A DNA stretch of 56,963 bases from Pseudomonadota bacterium (GTDB lineage Bacteria; Pseudomonadota; Gammaproteobacteria; Burkholderiales; JABEVD01): contig JAJZVB010000001.1 in assembly GCA_021845885.1 (NCBI GenBank), forward strand, positions 1 through 56,963, read 5' to 3'. The position numbers and the translations under genes are program-made. A model generated the notes under the pieces. That model was not told the origin of the DNA. It saw only the letters and a program-made list of their open reading frames with translations, and did not search any database. Position 1 is the first letter of the stretch. Every line of letters starts with the position of its first letter. Positions 12,735 to 56,963 of the stretch are shown here, piece after piece.

Positions 12735-13436
12735 GTGCTTCAGGTGCCACGTCGAGCGCGCATACGACATGCGGGGATTGCGCTTCATGTGATCCAGCGG
12801 GGAAACAATCATTCGGCCTGTTTTTATGCTGAGACGGACTATCGCAGCTATCTGGACTGGCTTCGTGAATTGGCCGGGAAAACAGGTTGTACAATTCACG
12901 CTTATTGCCTAATGACGAACCATGTTCATCTGCTGCTTACGCCCAGTCACGATGACAGCGCATCCATGTTGATGAAGTATTTGGGACAGCGCTATGTACA
13001 ATATGTCAATCGCACGTACAAACGAACGGGAACGCTGTGGGAAGGCCGTTTCCGATCAAGCTTGGTGCAAGGGGACTATTATGTTCTTTCCTGTTACCGC
13101 TACATCGAGTCGAATCCTGTACGGGCGGCAATGGTCGGGAATGTCTTGGAATACCCCTGGTCGAGTTACCGTTTCAACTCCGGGATCGAAGAATCGGGTT
13201 GGCTCGTTTTTCATCCGGCATATCTTGAGCTGGGGGAAAATAGGGATGCCAGATATGCTGCTTACCGGGAATTGTTTGACGCTGGTCTCGACTCGGATAT
13301 GATTGAAAAAATCAGCCAGCGAACGAACGGCGGATTTGCTTTGGGTGATGAACGCTTTTTGGCCGAGATCGAAACGATGTTGAATCGCCGGGTATCTCCA
13401 GCTAGGGCTGGGAGGCCGAAGAAATCGAGTAAGTGA
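12735..13436 (+). CDS. REP-associated tyrosine transposase (IS200/IS605-type Y1 transposase, RayT-like)
   Basis: HUH motif in LMTNHVHLLLTP and a catalytic-Tyr region YRYIESNPVRAAMV. The N-terminal VPRRARI...HVIQRGNN is typical of RayT. The start is GTG at 12735 or GTG at 12744. Confidence 0.85.
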   Translation: MLQVPRRARIRHAGIALHVIQRGNNHSACFYAETDYRSYLDWLRELAGKTGCTIHAYCLMTNHVHLLLTPSHDDSASMLMKYLGQRYVQYVNRTYKRTGTLWEGRFRSSLVQGDYYVLSCYRYIESNPVRAAMVGNVLEYPWSSYRFNSGIEESGWLVFHPAYLELGENRDARYAAYRELFDAGLDSDMIEKISQRTNGGFALGDERFLAEIETMLNRRVSPARAGRPKKSSK

Positions 13437-13440
13437 ATTT

Positions 13441-13459
13441 GAAATGGTGGTCTGTCCCC
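13441..13459. repeat. Right inverted repeat flanking the RayT-like gene
   Basis: gaaatggtggtctgtcccc, the reverse complement of the left repeat with one mismatch. Confidence 0.8.
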
Positions 13460-13952
13460 TATTCGGAGTCCTCGCCCGCATTCGCGCTGCTGGTCAATGC
13501 GCTGCGCTACCAATCAGGAGATAACGAATGGACTTCGGGTACGCGGCGGAAGTAAGTTATACAGCCCAATTGTCCGTTATTTCTCGCAGAGCAGACAAAT
13601 GTCTCCTCATGGCATATTCCTCATGTGTGCCTGCCCGATTTTTGAAATAATTTCGCATGCGTTGAACCATGTTCGGAATTGCTCTGTCTTCCGGGAATGT
13701 CGCAGAACATCGTAACATTCTGATAAACTTGGAATGCCGCCGTTTCTATTTGTAACTTATTGTAATAGAAAGGGGATGGCGCTTGTTCCTGGATCGGTGA
13801 TTCTGCTAGCATGGACAGTTGCCATCGAACGGAATCCCGAAGTCGCATAAGATTTTCTTAAATGCCAGGCAAAAAAATCTCGTTTGTCCGGCATGATGGC
13901 GAACCCTACAATCGAAAGCTTTTAAGGCATTTTTCCCTGTTCCGGAGACAGC

Positions 13953-16900
13953 GTGTGGATTGTTAAGATCGCCCTGAGAAGGCCCTATACTTTTATCGTG
14001 ATGGCGCTCGTCATCGTGCTCATGGGGCTTTATGCGCTCTATACCACGGCCACGGACATCTTCCCTGACATACGCATCCCAGTCGTTTCCGTGGTCTGGA
14101 ACTATACCGGGCTTCAGCCCGAGGACATGGCCAACCGCATCGTTTCCTTCACGGAGCGGGTGGCCACCACGACGGTCAACGACATCGAGCATACCGAATC
14201 GAATTCGCTGAACGGCATCGCCGTAGTGAAGTATTTCTTCCAGCCCCATGTCAATGAGGATCTGGCCGTCGCGCAGATCACTTCCATTTCGCAGACGATG
14301 CTGAGGCAGATGCCCGGGGGAACCACCCCTCCCTTCATCCTGGCCTACAATGCTTCCAGCGTGCCCGTATTGCAGATCGCGCTCGCGAGCCCGAGGCTTT
14401 CCGAGGCGGAGCTTTTCGATCTGGGCAACAACTTCATCCGAACCCAGCTTTCGACCGTCGCCGGCGTATCCCTTCCCTGGCCCTACGGCGGAAAGCAGAG
14501 GCAGGTCCAGGTGGATATCGATCCCGCAGCGCTCAGGGCGAAGGGCATTTCGTCCCTCGACGTGATGCAGGCGATATCCAACCAGAACCTGATCATTCCC
14601 GCGGGCACCCAGAAGATCAGCGATCTCGAGTATTTCGTCAAGCTCAATGCCAGTCCTTCCAGGATCGCCGATCTGAACAACATTCCGGTCAAAAGCGTCA
14701 ATGGCGCGGTGATCTACGTCAAGGACGTGGCGCATGTTCGGGACGGCTATCCGCCCCAGACCAACATGGTGCGCATGGAAGGGCACAGGGCCGTGCTCAT
14801 GAGTGTGCTGAAGACGGGCAGCGCATCGACGCTCAACATCGTCGACAGCATCAAGGCCATGATGCCCGACGTGAAGGCGGGGCTGCCGGGCGACCTGAAT
14901 GTTTCACTGCTCGCCGACCAGTCCCTGTTCGTCAGGGCAGCAGTTTCGGGAGTGGTGCGGGAAGGATTGATCGCGGCTGCATTGACCGCGATCATGATCC
15001 TGCTCTTCCTGGGAAGCTGGCGCAGCACTTTCATCATCGCCATTTCCATTCCGCTTTCGGTTCTGGCCTCCATCGTCTGCCTTTCATTGCTCGGTGAAAC
15101 CATCAACATCATGACGCTGGGGGGGCTCGCGCTGGCCGTCGGCATCCTCGTCGACGATGCCACGGTGACCATCGAGAACATCAACTGGCATCTCGAGCAT
15201 GGCAAGAGCGTGCATGATGCGATACTCGACGGCGCCGACCAGATCGCCATTCCGGCCCTGGTTTCGACCTTGTGCATCTGCATCGTTTTCGCCCCGATGT
15301 TCCTTCTCGGGGGCGTTGCGCGTTATCTTTTCGTGCCGATGGCGGAATCGGTGGTTTTCGCCATGCTCGCCTCCTATCTTCTTTCCCGTACGCTGGTGCC
15401 GACCCTCGCCATGTACTGGCTGAAGCCGCACGAAGAGGAAAAGGCGCCGTCCGGTTCTTTGTTCGGTCGCGTCAGTCAGGCCTTCGAAAACGGCTTCGAG
15501 AATCTGCGCAGGCGCTATCAGACGGCGCTTTCGGCCGTATTGCAAGTGCCGAGGGAGTTCGTGGTAGGATTTCTCCTTCTCGTTGTCCTGAGTCTCTTTC
15601 TCTATCCTTATATGGGTTCGGACTTCTTCCCTTCAGTGGACGCAGGGCAGATCAAGCTGCACTTGAGGGCGAGGACCGGCATCCGCATCGAGCAGGCGGC
15701 GGTATTGTGCGATGAGGTGGAGGCTGTAGTGAAGACGGTCATTCCCGCTGAAGAACTGGACAGCATGGTGGACAACATCGGGCTTCCCTACAGCGGCATC
15801 AATCTTTCCTACAGCACTTCGGCTCCGATAGGCGCGGGGGATGCCGACATACTGATTTCGCTGAAATCCGGCCACCGTCCGACCGAGGCCTATATCGAAA
15901 CATTGCGCAAGGAGCTGAACAGGCGTTTTCCCGACACCCAGTTTTCCTTCCTTCCCGCCGACATCGTCAGCCAGATCCTCAATTTCGGCCTGCCCGCGCC
16001 TGTCGATATCCAGATTGCAGGCTACAACGTCAAGGCCAATCATCTTTACGCGGACAGGCTGCTGCAGTCTCTGAATCAGGTGCCGGGGCTCGTCGATCAG
16101 CGCATCCAGCAACGCTACGATTATCCCCAGATCAATGTCGATGTCGACCGCTCCAGGGCGAGCCTCCTCGGCCTCACCGAAAACGACGTCGCCCGGAACC
16201 TGCTCATCACCCTCTCTGGGAGCTTCCAGACCAACCCGACTTTCTGGGTCGATCCCAAGACAGGCGTGCAATACAGCGTCGCCACCCAGGCGCCCCAGTA
16301 CCGCATGCAGAATCTGAACGATCTTGCGCAGATGCCTGTCACGAACGGCAACGGGCAATCGCCGCAGCTTCTTTCCAACCTGGCGAGCTTCCATCGCACG
16401 TCCGGGCCCGCAGTCGTCACGCACTATAACGTCAAACCGGTTTTCGACATTTATGCCAGCACTTCAGGGCGCGACCTGGGCGGCGTGGCGAAAGACATCA
16501 GTGCGATCGTTGCCAAGGCTCCCGCCTTGCCGAAAGGGAGCACCCTCACCCTCAGGGGGCAGGTGGAAACCATGCAGAGCGCCTTCCACGGGCTTGCCTG
16601 GGGCCTTCTTGCCGCAATCGTGCTGATCTATCTGCTGATCGTGGTGAATTTCCAGTCCTGGCTTTATCCTTTCATCATCATCACGGCATTGCCCGCAGCC
16701 CTTGCGGGAATCGTCTGGATGCTTTTCCTGACCGGGACCCGGATCAGCGTACCCGCGCTCACCGGGGCCATCATGTGCATGGGCGTTGCCACGGCCAACA
16801 GCATCCTGGTGGTCAGCTTCGCGCGGGAGCGCGTCAAGGCGGGCGACACGCCCATGCAGGCGGCCCTTGCCGCAGGCTATACCCGCCTGAGGCCCGTGCT

Positions 16901-51118: not shown

Positions 51119-51319
51119 ATGCCAGAAGTGTATTTGGGTGATCTGCCGCTATGGTCGGACAACGAAGCCAGAGACGTAATGGAGAAATTGTGTCAAAAAC
51201 ATAATGTTCCTGTGGATGTGTTCACAGAGCTTGTGGCAATTCAACGCCATAACCAAGACAGAAGCAAGGCGTTTGGTATTTATGACGCCATCAGCGAAGC
51301 CTTGAGCCGGATGGATTGA
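51119..51319 (+). CDS. 66-aa ORF resembling the detached C-terminal tail of DndC
   Basis: It starts 4 nt after the DndC-like stop, in a different frame. ...ARDVMEKLCQKHNVPVDVFTELVAIQRHNQDRSKAFGIYDAISEAL recalls the helical C-terminal segment of full-length DndC. That comparison is from memory only. Confidence 0.45.
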   Translation: MPEVYLGDLPLWSDNEARDVMEKLCQKHNVPVDVFTELVAIQRHNQDRSKAFGIYDAISEALSRMD

Positions 51320-51328
51320 AAGAAATTT

Positions 51329-53377
51329 ATGTGGATTTCCCGGCTTGAACTCATCAATTTCAAAAGCTACCAACATCAGGTTTTTGAGTTTCCTTCCCCC
51401 AGTCAAGGCAAGAACATCATTCTCATAGGTGGGATGAATGGCTACGGTAAAACGACCATTCTGGAAGCTCTCTATCTTGGGCTCTATGGTAAAGACTCCA
51501 TCATCCACCTTGCCCGCGCTGGCATCAAAGGTGACGTGGGCTACCCGGTTTTTCTTGAGCGTGCCTTGCACGGTCATGCATTAAAAACCAAACGCGATAC
51601 CATGAGTGTATTGGTGCAAATCAATACCAACGAGCATGAAGGCTTTCAGGTCACTCGCAAGTGGTTTTTTTCACCCAAAGGCGATTGGAGAGATGAAGAA
51701 ATTCTGATCTACGATATCCGTGATGGCATTCGTACCCAAACTCGCAATGCCGATCAGATTGAAGAAATATTGGATCAATATTTTGTTCCTGCCCATTTGG
51801 CACCATTCTTCTTCTTTGATGGTGAAGAAGTGAAACGTTTGGCCGACCATAACCGTGTTGAGCAAATCAAAATGGGCATGGAAGGTTTGCTTGGCGTGGT
51901 TCTGCTCCGCAAATTAGAAACCAGGTTGCAGCAGTATCAGGCTAACAAGAGCCAGGGTGTACCAAAAGTCGATGAAGAAAAACACCGTCAATTGTTGGAG
52001 GAACTTACTCAGCACGAGCAACTGCTGGAAGAATCGCAACAGAGGAAAATGAAGACTCATGAGGAACTGGATGTACTCAAAACCGAACGTAGTAATTTGA
52101 TGCACCGTATCATGGCACTTGGGGGTGGTGGCGGCGATATTGCAAATGCTCGAGACATCGTTGAGGAATTGACCCGCGCGGAAATTGACCTGAAAGAATG
52201 CCAGGACGATGTGGAGCAGGTATTGGGGTCCAGTCTTTCATTCCACTTGATTTCACGGGAAATTCGTAACGCTTATGTGAATCAGCTGAAGGCTGAAGAA
52301 GAACGTATTAAGTGGGACACCCGCAAGCACAGCCTGGAACCGGATAAAGAGAAATTTGTTTCGCGTTTTTTCGCGGATGATGCGCCAGCGTTTAATCCTG
52401 ACCTTACTAGCGAGCAGCACACGACGATTACACACCGCCTAGAAACTGCATGGGAAAGCCTGTTTTATCCTTTACCAGATGGCTGTGCGGAAGAAATCAT
52501 CCACGATTATGTCCATGGCGCGAAACGCCAGCAGGTTATTGGCATGATGGAAAATTTAAGCATCGGTGCTCAGGACATACTTGGCCTTCTGGAACGGCGG
52601 GATAACCTCCATGAGAAGATTCGCAACCTTCGCAACCGTCTGGCCAAGATTGAGGGGATTGACCGAGATGGAACATTGGCCGGACTCAATACCGAAATGA
52701 GTACCATACATGTCAAAATTGACCAGAAGCAGCACGAACTAGGGGCAATCGAGAAGCATGTTTCCTCACTTCAAATCAACATCAACAACGAACGTGCCAA
52801 CTATCAGCGCGAACATGAGAAGTTTCTGAAAGCAAATCCGGTAAAATCGGATGTTGCTCGTGCAGATAGGGTATGCAAATTGATTGAGGAACTGGTTCCC
52901 AGCCTTTATGCGCTCAAGACAAACCGCTTAGCCTATGCCATGACTAACGTTTTCCAGCAACTATCACATAAGAAGCAGGTGGCGCGAATTGAAATTGATG
53001 AAACAGGGAAATCCCGTCTCATTAGCTTTGAAGGCGACGAAATTACATTTGATAAATCTGCTGGTGAAGACCAGTTATTTGCCACTTCGCTGCTAGCAGG
53101 GCTGGCCGAAATCTCCGGTATTAAGGCACCCTTGGTGGTTGATACGCCGTTGGCACGCCTGGACAGCAATCACCGCAAAAACATCTTGAATTACTGGGTT
53201 TCTGATAAGAGTCGACAAGTATTTCTGTTGAGCCAGGATAAGGAAATTGACGCGCAAGTTTACAATGAGCTACAGGACAGCATTGCGCAGTCATACCTGC
53301 TTCAACACCAGCAAATCGGTAATGGCGTGGGTATGACAGTAGCCACCAAGAACGCCTACTTTGGAGGCCAGCGATGA
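51329..53377 (+). CDS. DndD-like SMC/ABC-type ATPase
   Basis: N-terminus MWISRLELINFKSYQ...LIGGMNGYGKTTILEALYLGLYG, a long coiled-coil middle, and a C-terminus KSAGEDQLFATSLLAGLAEISG...LVVDTPLARLDSNHR...VFLLSQDKEI. This is the DndD family layout. Confidence 0.85.
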   Translation: MWISRLELINFKSYQHQVFEFPSPSQGKNIILIGGMNGYGKTTILEALYLGLYGKDSIIHLARAGIKGDVGYPVFLERALHGHALKTKRDTMSVLVQINTNEHEGFQVTRKWFFSPKGDWRDEEILIYDIRDGIRTQTRNADQIEEILDQYFVPAHLAPFFFFDGEEVKRLADHNRVEQIKMGMEGLLGVVLLRKLETRLQQYQANKSQGVPKVDEEKHRQLLEELTQHEQLLEESQQRKMKTHEELDVLKTERSNLMHRIMALGGGGGDIANARDIVEELTRAEIDLKECQDDVEQVLGSSLSFHLISREIRNAYVNQLKAEEERIKWDTRKHSLEPDKEKFVSRFFADDAPAFNPDLTSEQHTTITHRLETAWESLFYPLPDGCAEEIIHDYVHGAKRQQVIGMMENLSIGAQDILGLLERRDNLHEKIRNLRNRLAKIEGIDRDGTLAGLNTEMSTIHVKIDQKQHELGAIEKHVSSLQININNERANYQREHEKFLKANPVKSDVARADRVCKLIEELVPSLYALKTNRLAYAMTNVFQQLSHKKQVARIEIDETGKSRLISFEGDEITFDKSAGEDQLFATSLLAGLAEISGIKAPLVVDTPLARLDSNHRKNILNYWVSDKSRQVFLLSQDKEIDAQVYNELQDSIAQSYLLQHQQIGNGVGMTVATKNAYFGGQR

Positions 53378-54906
53378 GTGATATCAGTTTGGAAAATGTG
53401 CTGGTCTCCAATTTCCAGACCAGTGCTGAAGCTGACAAAATTACCGAAATGCTAAAAGGAAAGTTGGGTCTTTCCGTGCGATATCGTGTCGCTCGTCTTG
53501 CCATTGGCCGCTCGCTGGGCGAACCAAATTTCCCTACGCAAAATGCGGATGCCCAAGGGAAAACTATCAAGGGTGATTTGCTGTTCGGATTGGATGAATA
53601 TCCATTGTGGGTGGGGTTACTCATCACTAACATCAAGAACCACATCCCAAAAGCGGAGCTTACGATTGCAACTTTACAAAATGCGGTCAGGCGACATTGG
53701 CAGCGGGGCATCATGCTTTTGCTGGATGACTGGAACGAAGCGGGCGAAGATCCTCGAAAGTTTTGGGAAATATTGATTCATCGCCGGGCCATGCTGCCCG
53801 ATACTGTTTCCAGGCCGGACAAGTTTGGTGAGGTACATCGTGGTGAAGAGATGGGATTCACTGGGACAGCCAAGGCTATCCATGTCGAGTTGGGGAAGGG
53901 GATGGATGCCCCATACGAACAGTACATACGTCTGGTGAATGGTGTGGGTACTTCACCGCATATGGCAATTATGGGGCAGTCCGGCTCTGGTAAGACCCGT
54001 ATCATGAAAGAGGTATTGAAGCAGATCCATATACAAACTACTGCACCAGTAATTTTGCTGGACCTGGGTAAGGGTGACTTGGCCAACGATACGGCATTGA
54101 TTGACACATTGGGAGCGAAAATCCTGCGTGTTCCCGAGGACGGTATTCCGTTGGATATGTTTTACGGCTCCAAGCAAAATGATGAGGTAGCTACTGACAC
54201 AGTGATGAGCTTTCGTGACTCCTTCTCTAATGTGGTGCAAGGTAAGCTGGGACCGAAACAACTGGACAATCTACGGGAAGCCCTAAAGCCGCTGTTTTCA
54301 ACCCAAGAAAAAATAACGCTGGAAGATGTGCGCTCGTGGCTTGACCAGTTCTATGAAGAGAATGACTTGAAGATGGACAGCGTAATGTCCACCATCAACG
54401 ATCTGACGCAATATACGATTTTTAGGCCAGACTATTCACCCCTGCAATTTTTCTCACAAAGTTGGATTATCACTTTTGCCCATGCTCACGACACCATCAA
54501 AAATCTGGCGGTTTTCTTGCTGATGGATGCGTTAAACACATACATGAAGCGCTTACCAGAGGCACCACAAGACAGTGAAGGGCATCGCGCAATCCGTCTG
54601 GTTCTCGCTGTGGATGAAGCACGCCACCTGTTGTCATCCAGGCATGACGCCTTGAGCGACAATATCCGCCTGCATCGCTCCAAGGGCTTGGTGGTTACCC
54701 TTGCTTCGCAAAGTCCCGATGACTACGATGGCAAGAGCGATGATTATATGGAAAACATTGGATTGCCTATCTGTTTCAACACGAACGCTGTGGCTACAAA
54801 AGTGCTCCAGAACATGTTTCGGGGCAGGGTGAGCTTTTCCTCTCTCCCGCCTGGCGTATTCATGACTGTGAAGGATTCGAAGCCTATAAAGGTAAAGGCT
54901 TTTTAG
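53374..54906 (+). CDS. Fusion protein: DndE-like N-terminal domain + HerA/FtsK (DUF87)-type P-loop ATPase
   Basis: ATGA overlap with the DndD-like gene. Residues ~10-135 (FQTSAEADKITEMLKGKLGLSVRYRVARLAIGRSL...GDLLFG...AVRRHWQRGIMLL) follow the DndE pattern as I recall it. These are followed by Walker A IMGQSGSGKTR and Walker B RLVLAVDEARHLL. Confidence 0.65.
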   Translation: MSDISLENVLVSNFQTSAEADKITEMLKGKLGLSVRYRVARLAIGRSLGEPNFPTQNADAQGKTIKGDLLFGLDEYPLWVGLLITNIKNHIPKAELTIATLQNAVRRHWQRGIMLLLDDWNEAGEDPRKFWEILIHRRAMLPDTVSRPDKFGEVHRGEEMGFTGTAKAIHVELGKGMDAPYEQYIRLVNGVGTSPHMAIMGQSGSGKTRIMKEVLKQIHIQTTAPVILLDLGKGDLANDTALIDTLGAKILRVPEDGIPLDMFYGSKQNDEVATDTVMSFRDSFSNVVQGKLGPKQLDNLREALKPLFSTQEKITLEDVRSWLDQFYEENDLKMDSVMSTINDLTQYTIFRPDYSPLQFFSQSWIITFAHAHDTIKNLAVFLLMDALNTYMKRLPEAPQDSEGHRAIRLVLAVDEARHLLSSRHDALSDNIRLHRSKGLVVTLASQSPDDYDGKSDDYMENIGLPICFNTNAVATKVLQNMFRGRVSFSSLPPGVFMTVKDSKPIKVKAF

Positions 54907-54916
54907 GGGAGGCGCA

Positions 54917-55423
54917 ATGACAAAGGAGGTACCTTTAGAAGAAAATGAAATTAAAAAAACTCCCATGACTCCAAGTTGGATCGCTTTCTGGACAGCCTTA
55001 ATTTATGCTTTTGGGGTACTCATATTAGGCGGTGGCGCAGGCATTTGGCTACCTGCTGTTATGCCGACTAAATCCGTTGGGATCGATGCATTAACTACTT
55101 TTTCGATGGCTACCTTGACACCTATTTGCGTTGATTTGATGCTTGACTTAGATGTGTATGGCCGCAAGTTATCGAAGCTTTGGCGCGTTTCCCTTGTTGT
55201 TGGATGCATATTTGCTGGCACATTGGCAATAATTGCCCTTGTTCGGGAGAAGGCCGCTGGTGAGTGGTTGGCAGGAGTCTTCTCGGTGATCTTATCTGTG
55301 GTAATTTGGATTACTTTTGCGATGAAATCAGAACGGTTTCTACCTGATGGTTCCAAGACCGGTTCGATTGGTGGGGATAGGCCAGAAACCTCTAACTTGA
55401 ATGGCACTGGGTTACCCGCATGA
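54917..55423 (+). CDS. Small integral membrane protein (~4 TM helices)
   Basis: Hydrophobic segments WIAFWTALIYAFGVLILGGGAGIWL, LTTFSMATLTPICVDLML, VSLVVGCIFAGTLAIIALV and LAGVFSVILSVVIWITFA. A 4-nt overlap joins it to the next gene. Confidence 0.65.
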   Translation: MTKEVPLEENEIKKTPMTPSWIAFWTALIYAFGVLILGGGAGIWLPAVMPTKSVGIDALTTFSMATLTPICVDLMLDLDVYGRKLSKLWRVSLVVGCIFAGTLAIIALVREKAAGEWLAGVFSVILSVVIWITFAMKSERFLPDGSKTGSIGGDRPETSNLNGTGLPA

Positions 55424-56734: not shown

Positions 56735-56963
56735 TCAACTCAACATCTCCATCAACACCGGATGCCATTTGGAAAGCTCGATCTCACCCATCTTTCCAGC
56801 CAGGCGACGTTTATCCACAGAGCGAAGTTGATCGAGCAAAATGCGCGCTGGTTTACCCGCAAACATGACCTCCGGGCGACTACCCAAAGGCTGTCCCTGG
56901 CTGGTCAGCGGCGCTATGATGACACGCGGCAGCGCAGCATTCAGGTCATCTGGCGAAACCACC
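56735..56963 (-). CDS. MazF/PemK-family type II toxin (N-terminus beyond the right edge of the window)
   Basis: ...VIIAPLTSQGQPLGSRPEVMFAGKPARILLDQLRSVDKRRL is the characteristic PemK/MazF C-terminal core. The frame is open to the end of the window. Confidence 0.7.
   Translation of the reverse strand, partial: VVSPDDLNAALPRVIIAPLTSQGQPLGSRPEVMFAGKPARILLDQLRSVDKRRLAGKMGEIELSKWHPVLMEMLS

Follow-up and report, generated by a model that had tools for sequence, protein, structure and literature searches.

In the general model of Dnd phosphorothioate (PT) modification systems, DndE works with the ABC ATPase DndD: it scans DNA in search of target sites and brings in DndC and DndA (PMC10853773). The same study, Rakesh et al. 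2024, describes proteins in which DndE and a HerA/FtsK ATPase are joined in one polypeptide, adjoining an ABC ATPase related to DndD, and Krishnan et al. 2020 (NAR 48:10045) is cited there for this DndE::HerA/FtsK fusion. Here we analyzed a gene of this kind, dndE::herA/ftsK, which lies in a Dnd operon on a stretch of 56,963 nucleotides from a Pseudomonadota bacterium of the order Burkholderiales (GenBank assembly GCA_021845885.1, contig JAJZVB010000001.1, positions 1 to 56,963, forward strand). This whole stretch is called the window. The gene had been singled out in an earlier reading of the DNA by a model, hereafter the original prediction. Both domains occur in one polypeptide adjoining DndD, and the DndC and DndD of the operon score above the NCBIfam equivalog cut-offs with their catalytic motifs kept. 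The open reading frame (ORF) is a genuine single gene and a member of the described DndE::HerA/FtsK fusion family of Dnd operons; we hold the domain identity and family membership to be virtually certain. The protein fits the "clade-3" HerA/FtsK group of Rakesh et al. 2024 without substantive difference, its PT-modification neighborhood and the likeness of its ATPase to that of DndH included. The fusion is a published and widespread architecture and not new as an observation, and both its prior publication and its wide spread were missed by the original prediction.

The closest described relatives of the two halves of the protein belong to different systems. Standalone DndE proteins of known structure (4lrv and 5wtu from E. 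coli B7A and 7x4e from Natronorubrum bangense) have the same fold as the N-terminal half, and standalone DndE is encoded in the same place as the fusion gene, directly downstream of dndD. DndE binds (nicked) double-stranded DNA and is required for phosphorothioation. As the original prediction had stated, it is normally small and standalone: the solved DndEs are single chains of 109-134 amino acids (aa), whereas the DndE domain in the window runs on into a 345-residue ATPase. The C-terminal ATPase of DndH/DptH, from the DndFGH restriction system, is the closest structural and profile relative of the ATPase in the window, and the occurrence of a HerA/FtsK-like motor in DndH, also stated by the original prediction, is borne out by the solved structure 7es4 and by PMC10853773. 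DndH, however, is a protein of about 1,600-1,700 aa that also contains a SWI2/SNF2 domain and a methylase, both inactive, as well as target-recognition domains and a restriction endonuclease (PMC10853773). The window protein has none of these additional domains, carries DndE at its N terminus and is 510 aa long, and it is not a DndH. SIR2-HerA/Nezha, DUF4297-HerA and Mad8 of MADS have an ATPase of the same class (the PADLOC mad8 model matches the window protein with an expectation value, E, of 1.9e-14), but they have other partners and no DndE domain, and the likeness is confined to the ATPase core.

A DndE domain and a HerA/FtsK-class ATPase in one polypeptide

The original prediction had assigned the first ~135 aa to DndE from a pattern that is present at residues 17-48 (SAEADKITEMLKGKLGLSVRYRVARLAIGRSL), 67-83 (GDLLFGLDEYPLWVGLL) and 107-116 (RHWQRGIMLL). 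This assignment agrees with the profile searches. The Pfam DndE family PF08870 matches residues 14-120 over profile positions 2-107 of 111, with 30.5 bits against a gathering score of 25, and the PADLOC DndE model matches with an E of 6.7e-7. The NCBIfam DndE equivalog TIGR03184, which models standalone DndE of about 104 aa, gives 21.3 bits against a cut-off of 71.85. When a profile built from 22 N-terminal domains was searched against the PDB, the top three matches were solved DndEs (7x4e, E of 1.1e-5; 5wtu, 0.0039; 4lrv, 0.008); the single-sequence search with the fusion protein gave marginal P-loop matches only.

The structure models point in the same direction. In the full-length AlphaFold model, the N-terminal domain is poorly predicted, with a predicted local distance difference test (pLDDT) score of about 50; the prediction of residues 1-150 from a 72-sequence alignment reached a pLDDT of 92.5 and a predicted template modeling score of 0.86. 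This model contains a first unit of a strand (13-15) and two helices (18-31 and 36-48), a second unit of a strand (64-66), a helix (76-90) and a long helix (98-122), and a C-terminal helix (127-138). In a Foldseek comparison against the PDB, the first 17 matches were all DndE chains, including 7x4e (template modeling [TM] score of 0.83, root mean square deviation [rmsd] of 2.6), 4lrv (TM of 0.73-0.78) and 5wtu, and they were followed by TraY of the F-plasmid relaxosome; the DndE-TraY relationship was noted too by Rakesh et al. 2024 (PMC10853773). A double ribbon-helix-helix with a C-terminal helix is described for all DndE proteins in that study, and residues 1-139 are predicted to fold as such a DndE-type double ribbon-helix-helix DNA-binding domain. 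In the model, the H1a-H2a loop has 4 residues, the H1b-H2b loop 7 and the terminal helix 12. These lengths match the criteria of PMC10853773 for the DndD-paired (clade-1) type of DndE, thereby placing the domain in this type. A hidden Markov model of the N-terminal domain gave a single match over all six frames of the window, with no second DndE. Because this is the only DndE in the operon, the fused domain must supply the DndE function, unless another copy is present elsewhere in the genome.

The remainder of the protein, ~370 aa that the original prediction had read as a HerA/FtsK-type ATPase, was well modeled by AlphaFold from about residue 165 to 510 (pLDDT of 80-95). The Walker A motif GQSGSGKTR lies at 201-209 and the Walker B motif LVLAVDEA at 409-416 (D414 and E415), both as quoted in the prediction, and both motifs are essentially invariant in 71 diverse homologs, some of which are only ~20% identical to the window protein. 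Entropy is near zero in this set at G201, G206, K207, T208, D230, D414, E415, R435, S445 and Q446. The HerA/FtsK clade is defined by a glutamine sensor-1 after core strand 4 and an upstream arginine finger (PMC10853773). In the window protein, the strand at 439-445 ends at the sensor-1 residue Q446, and the candidate arginine finger R435 is in the loop just before this strand, so that the glutamine and arginine of the clade are both represented by near-invariant residues. The near-invariant catalytic residues together with this pattern indicate that the ATPase is under selection to hydrolyze ATP. The least conserved part of the domain is a four-helix insert at about 270-346.

With the full-length model as the query, the best PDB match in Foldseek was the C-terminal domain of DndH (7es4; E of 1.2e-17, TM of 0.79, rmsd of 3.1). 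Next came HerA (4d2i) and SIR2-HerA complexes, VirB4 (4ag5) and TrwB (1e9s), with E values below 1e-8 for 4d2i, 4ag5 and 1e9s. The comparison of both parts with known structures, which the original prediction had proposed as a check, therefore returned DndE for the N-terminal part and DndH, HerA, VirB4 and TrwB for the C-terminal part. The PADLOC DndH models match residues 194-483 (E of 3.8e-19), well ahead of the HerA models, and this match is limited to positions about 1367-1673 of the 1715 in the DndH model. Pfam gave weak P-loop matches in the ATPase region (AAA_22, DUF87, AAA_10, HerA_C and TrwB). Judged by these profiles and by the modeled structure, the closest relative of the fused ATPase is predicted to be the motor domain at the C terminus of DndH. 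The two domains are joined by a linker with a pLDDT below 50 at residues 139-161, and both its sequence and its length vary among homologs.

The gene itself is intact. A ribosome-binding site, GGAGG, is found 7 nucleotides before the ATG, and the start of the gene overlaps the dndD stop codon as ATGA. In a tight operon, its translation is coupled to that of dndD. An identical 510-aa protein, in the same six-gene operon, was found in two independent assemblies (ENA ERZ27237461 and Logan SRR13221995). The original prediction had allowed that the ORF might be two genes joined by a sequencing error; such a join, or one made in assembly, is excluded by the independent assemblies, by homologs of the same length and by the conserved gene order.

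Conservation of the fusion and of its operon

A word-indexed search listed at least 119 homologs of 58-88% identity, and all of these were 500-517 aa long except one of 463 aa. Some of the listed homologs carry the NCBI names "DndE family protein," "DUF87 domain-containing protein" or "DUF1832 domain-containing protein." When 1.84 billion cluster representatives were searched exhaustively with a profile, 140 clusters were found at an E of 1e-30 or better. Of the 150 best representatives of the 50%-identity clusters, 101 had both domains (median length, 511 aa), and most of the others were short. Two short representatives were checked for a natural split into separate DndE and ATPase genes, and neither was a true split: one is a remnant whose context is degraded, and the other begins only 36 bases from the end of its contig. 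The remnant (L061:1304-1777 in an NCBI assembly; related loci are cited here by number and position) encodes a standalone protein of 157 aa with only the DndE-like N-terminal domain, among very short ORFs, and has the look of a decayed fusion gene and not of a natural split. The N-terminal domains share a mean pairwise identity of 29% and the ATPases one of 32%, and such similar divergence of both domains is consistent with an old and stable fusion.

A scan of one genome per species identified 58 related loci, which come from Beta- and Gammaproteobacteria, Desulfobacterota, Bacteroidota and Cloacimonadota. Among the 58 loci, most of those with enough flanking sequence keep the order DndC, small protein, DndD and fusion gene, and DndD is directly upstream of the fusion gene in nearly all related loci. 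The Bacteroidota loci lack the small protein, and their DndC is unsplit. In more than half of the informative loci, only the four core genes are present, without an effector or DGQHR gene, and in many loci the fusion gene is the last of the operon and housekeeping genes (PurL, PhoX, GidB-ParAB and RapA) come next. Because many loci end there, dndC, the small protein gene, dndD and the fusion gene form a self-sufficient four-gene module.

At least 16 related loci carry, after the fusion gene, a small variable gene and then a DndB/DGQHR gene. The small gene in this slot belongs to several unrelated groups: two groups and one singleton encode multi-pass membrane proteins, and one group encodes a GIY-YIG-like protein. 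Besides the window, at least 9 related loci have a multi-pass membrane protein in the slot, and these proteins fall into unrelated sequence clusters. In ten loci, the slot encodes a soluble protein of ~171 aa with the GIY-YIG-like motif GLYAF..YIGQ..R..Y..E, and 6 of these 10 members match PF01541 at an E of 1e-3 or worse, under the cut-off. Examples of slot genes are L013:11206-11721 and L009:11577-12140. By its sequences, this variable pattern resembles that of interchangeable effectors.

Other features were observed around the related loci. In the Bacteroidota loci, L045:11001-13124 and its equivalents in L043, L055 and L056, the fusion gene is followed by a different gene set, consisting of a ParB_N plus helix-turn-helix protein, a 216-aa protein that fits no clear family and a protein with a weak match to DUF6602. 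DndC identity in the Burkholderiales loci is 74-80%, against 55-61% for DndD and the fusion protein. A conserved opposite-strand ORF of 847-890 aa was found at L009:13394-15976 (- strand), L010:3607-6195, L011:13215-15827, L013:12980-15652 and L007:14144-16687. It follows the DGQHR gene in four loci, and in L007 it follows HATPase_c_3 and methyltransferase genes. Two members tested had no PADLOC match and one member tested had no Pfam match, and this ORF may encode an uncharacterized partner.

Proposed role of the fusion protein

The best overall explanation, which we place slightly on the probable side, is that the fusion protein is the DNA-targeting and motor subunit of the PT modification machine encoded by the Dnd operon. 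Its DndE domain and the DndD ABC ATPase would jointly recognize target sites. As in other HerA/FtsK enzymes, the tethered ATPase would probably form a ring hexamer; it would move the complex along double-stranded DNA, and this ATP-driven scanning would deliver DndC, with the small protein, to the sites. Sulfur would be supplied by a housekeeping IscS encoded elsewhere. For ATP-driven scanning as such, our confidence is tentative and falls just short of an even prospect. In the original prediction, the fusion could link the binding of DNA sites to a translocase, for DNA scanning or for discrimination of self and nonself; this is plausible and would match the general model in the literature. For the fused form, PMC10853773 gives no specific mechanism.

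Several points weigh against the proposed role. The relative position of the DndE and ATPase domains is poorly predicted across the linker, and the hexamer and the translocation are assumptions drawn from the superfamily. In canonical Dnd systems, DNA is modified in the absence of such a motor, so the chemistry does not require it. The ATPase has its nearest relative in a restriction protein, DndH, and not in a modification protein. Full-text searches found no experimental study of any member of the fusion family. In addition, the canonical DndABCDE cluster includes the cysteine desulfurase DndA, whereas a crude motif search of the window and all 58 loci detected no IscS/NifS-type active-site loop, which makes the sulfur source an assumption. 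DndA may be replaced by a housekeeping IscS from elsewhere, as in published systems.

The main rival explanation, attractive for the six-gene form of the operon and on balance unlikely, is a built-in restriction or defense arm. The fusion would then behave as a kind of minimal DndH, in which DndE reads the modification state and the motor engages or pumps unmodified invading DNA, and the variable slot gene and the ParB-like DGQHR protein would execute restriction or abortive infection in an operon independent of DndFGH. The likeness of the ATPase to the DndH motor in both sequence and structure argues for this explanation, as does the finding that 57 of the 58 loci have no DndH-sized ORF within 10 kb. 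The slot holds unrelated multi-pass membrane proteins in at least 10 loci and GIY-YIG-like proteins in 10 loci, as is usual for interchangeable effectors. The window's own membrane protein weakly matches the PADLOC "2TM effector" model (E of 0.0068), and suicide effectors at the boundaries of Dnd operons have been proposed (PMC10853773). However, the many four-gene loci, which are over half of the informative ones, are left unexplained by a defense arm. A nuclease domain is absent from the fusion protein, the matches to GIY-YIG and 2TM fall under curated thresholds, and the only DndE domain of the operon must at least also serve modification.

A broader form of this idea joins both functions, and we consider it rather doubtful. 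The six-gene operon would be a self-contained PT-based defense in which the fusion targets modification and, as a DndH-like motor, also captures unmodified DNA of invaders. Restriction or abortive infection would then fall to an interchangeable effector under the control of the ParB-like DGQHR protein, either a membrane protein that forms pores or a small nuclease. If true, the six-gene operon would represent a type of Dnd defense independent of DndFGH, DndI, Pbe and SspE.

An ATP-driven loader or release factor is a quite improbable explanation. ATP would control the assembly of DndC, DndD and DndE on DNA, or their release after modification, without processive movement. The catalytic motifs are conserved, yet nothing found here shows processive movement, and the linker of about 25 residues is short, so the DndE domain would stay close to the ATPase ring. 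According to PMC11662687, ATP triggers the dissociation of the Dnd-linked ATPase DndI from DNA, which documents an ATP-dependent conformational release of this kind. The same study attributes DNA translocase activity to DndFGH, and the characterized HerA, FtsK, TrwB, VirB4 and DndFGH are translocases or pumps; the conserved pattern of arginine finger and sensor-1 is also typical of ring translocases and speaks against a loader. DndI was considered as a relative of the fusion protein and set aside, being a different ATPase-nickase without a DndE domain.

The weak Pfam and NCBIfam matches of the protein to the TrwB, TraC, VirB4 and TraG P-loop families could suggest an artifact join, or a coupling or VirB4-type ATPase of a conjugative element adjoining the dnd genes by chance, but this has a negligible probability given the independent assemblies, the presence of both domains in most of the best cluster representatives and the gene order kept in most of the 58 loci, which come from five phyla, and a mobile-element ATPase is ruled out by conjugation-family scores far under their cut-offs and by flanks of chromosomal housekeeping genes without transfer genes.

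For a DNA-targeting and motor subunit, the consequence would be that some PT systems have a ring-motor ATPase attached to their DNA-recognition subunit. The fusion family offers a tractable handle on the unsettled question of how short target sites are found, and partially modified, by the Dnd machinery, because motor mutants could separate the site search from the sulfur chemistry. The shared motor domain also links the modification module with a restriction module, DndH. The window adds one more well-preserved and apparently functional example, in an intact and clonable operon.

The six-gene operon and neighboring sequences

The coordinates of the operon genes and of the parts of the fusion protein are listed in Table 1.

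Table 1. Operon genes in the window and regions of the fusion protein
Feature	Position	Strand	Basis
dndC, PP-loop sulfurtransferase, 386 aa	49954..51114	+	TIGR03183, 349.9 bits vs cut-off 290.4
Small 66-aa protein (Pfam Sp-DndD)	51119..51319	+	PF20306, E 3.7e-14
dndD	51329..53377	+	TIGR03185, 284 bits vs cut-off 245.85
dndE::herA/ftsK fusion gene	53374..54906	+	Single uninterrupted ORF, 510 aa
Predicted DndE domain, residues 1-139	53374..53790	+	AlphaFold model, Foldseek, PF08870, PDB profile search
Variable low-confidence linker, residues about 140-164	53791..53865	+	pLDDT, alignment
HerA/FtsK-class ATPase, residues about 165-510	53866..54903	+	Foldseek, PADLOC, conserved motifs
Multi-pass membrane protein, 168 aa, variable accessory slot	54917..55423	+	Hydropathy segments 19-50, 88-112, 112-139
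DndB-like DGQHR (ParB-superfamily) protein, 410 aa	55420..56652	+	TIGR04172 DGQHR_dnd_1, 483 bits vs cut-off 450; PF14072 DndB

All six genes are on the same strand in the order dndC, small protein, dndD, dndE::herA, membrane protein and dndB-like, with gaps of -4 to +10 nucleotides. A scan found no promoter- or terminator-like sites within the locus beyond chance expectation. The guanine-plus-cytosine (GC) fraction falls from about 0.56 to about 0.47 (0.46-0.49) from roughly 51 kb, after dndC, and dndC itself is host-like at 0.564. The SGGKDS motif and a Cys cluster are visible in the translation of dndC.

The DndC of the window appears to be split. It aligns to positions 4-364 of the 447 in TIGR03183, and the usual C-terminal ~60 residues are absent. 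The 66-aa protein also matches the last ~50 positions of three independent DndC models (TIGR03183, PRK06850 and PADLOC DndC), and hhalign placed it at columns 391-442 of 452 of the unsplit 440-aa Bacteroidota DndC (E of 1.6e-4, probability of 50%). Its mean identity is 65% in 17 loci. From the alignment to the DndC C terminus and this strong conservation, the small protein looks like a detached DndC segment and not a fast-evolving disordered regulator; it is probably the detached C-terminal segment of DndC. Neither the split DndC nor the accessory slot (membrane or GIY-YIG-like protein with DGQHR) is discussed for the fusion subgroup in PMC10853773. In the modification reading, the membrane protein and the DGQHR protein would be optional accessories that have a regulatory role or serve as a backup effector.

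The operon also resembles PbeABCD, the CxC ABC ATPase system, which likewise has an ABC ATPase, a DndE cognate and a small protein. The PADLOC model PDLC02733 ("PbeC") matches DndD end to end at 808 bits, and the best PADLOC DndD model gives 320 bits. Unlike PbeABCD, the window has no HKD-nuclease/SF2-helicase ORF (PbeA) in 49.9-57.0 kb, and the DndD translation has no CxC motif. With these two differences, a DndD that passes its equivalog cut-off and the DndD-type loops of the DndE domain, the Pbe/CxC system suggested by the PbeC match was rejected. Automated annotation of defense systems could mislabel the operon as Pbe.

A gene for a PemK/MazF-type toxin is located directly after the Dnd operon at 56735-56962 (- strand) and runs off the end of the window; a short ORF upstream of it is a possible antitoxin, and a related region was found at L060:7124-7590. 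Far upstream of the operon, a 233-aa ORF at 12735-13436 begins with MLQVPRRARIRHAGIALHVIQRGNN and overlaps a dip in GC fraction (0.488 over 13001-14000). Its HV.QRGN motif may resemble that of REP-associated tyrosine transposases.

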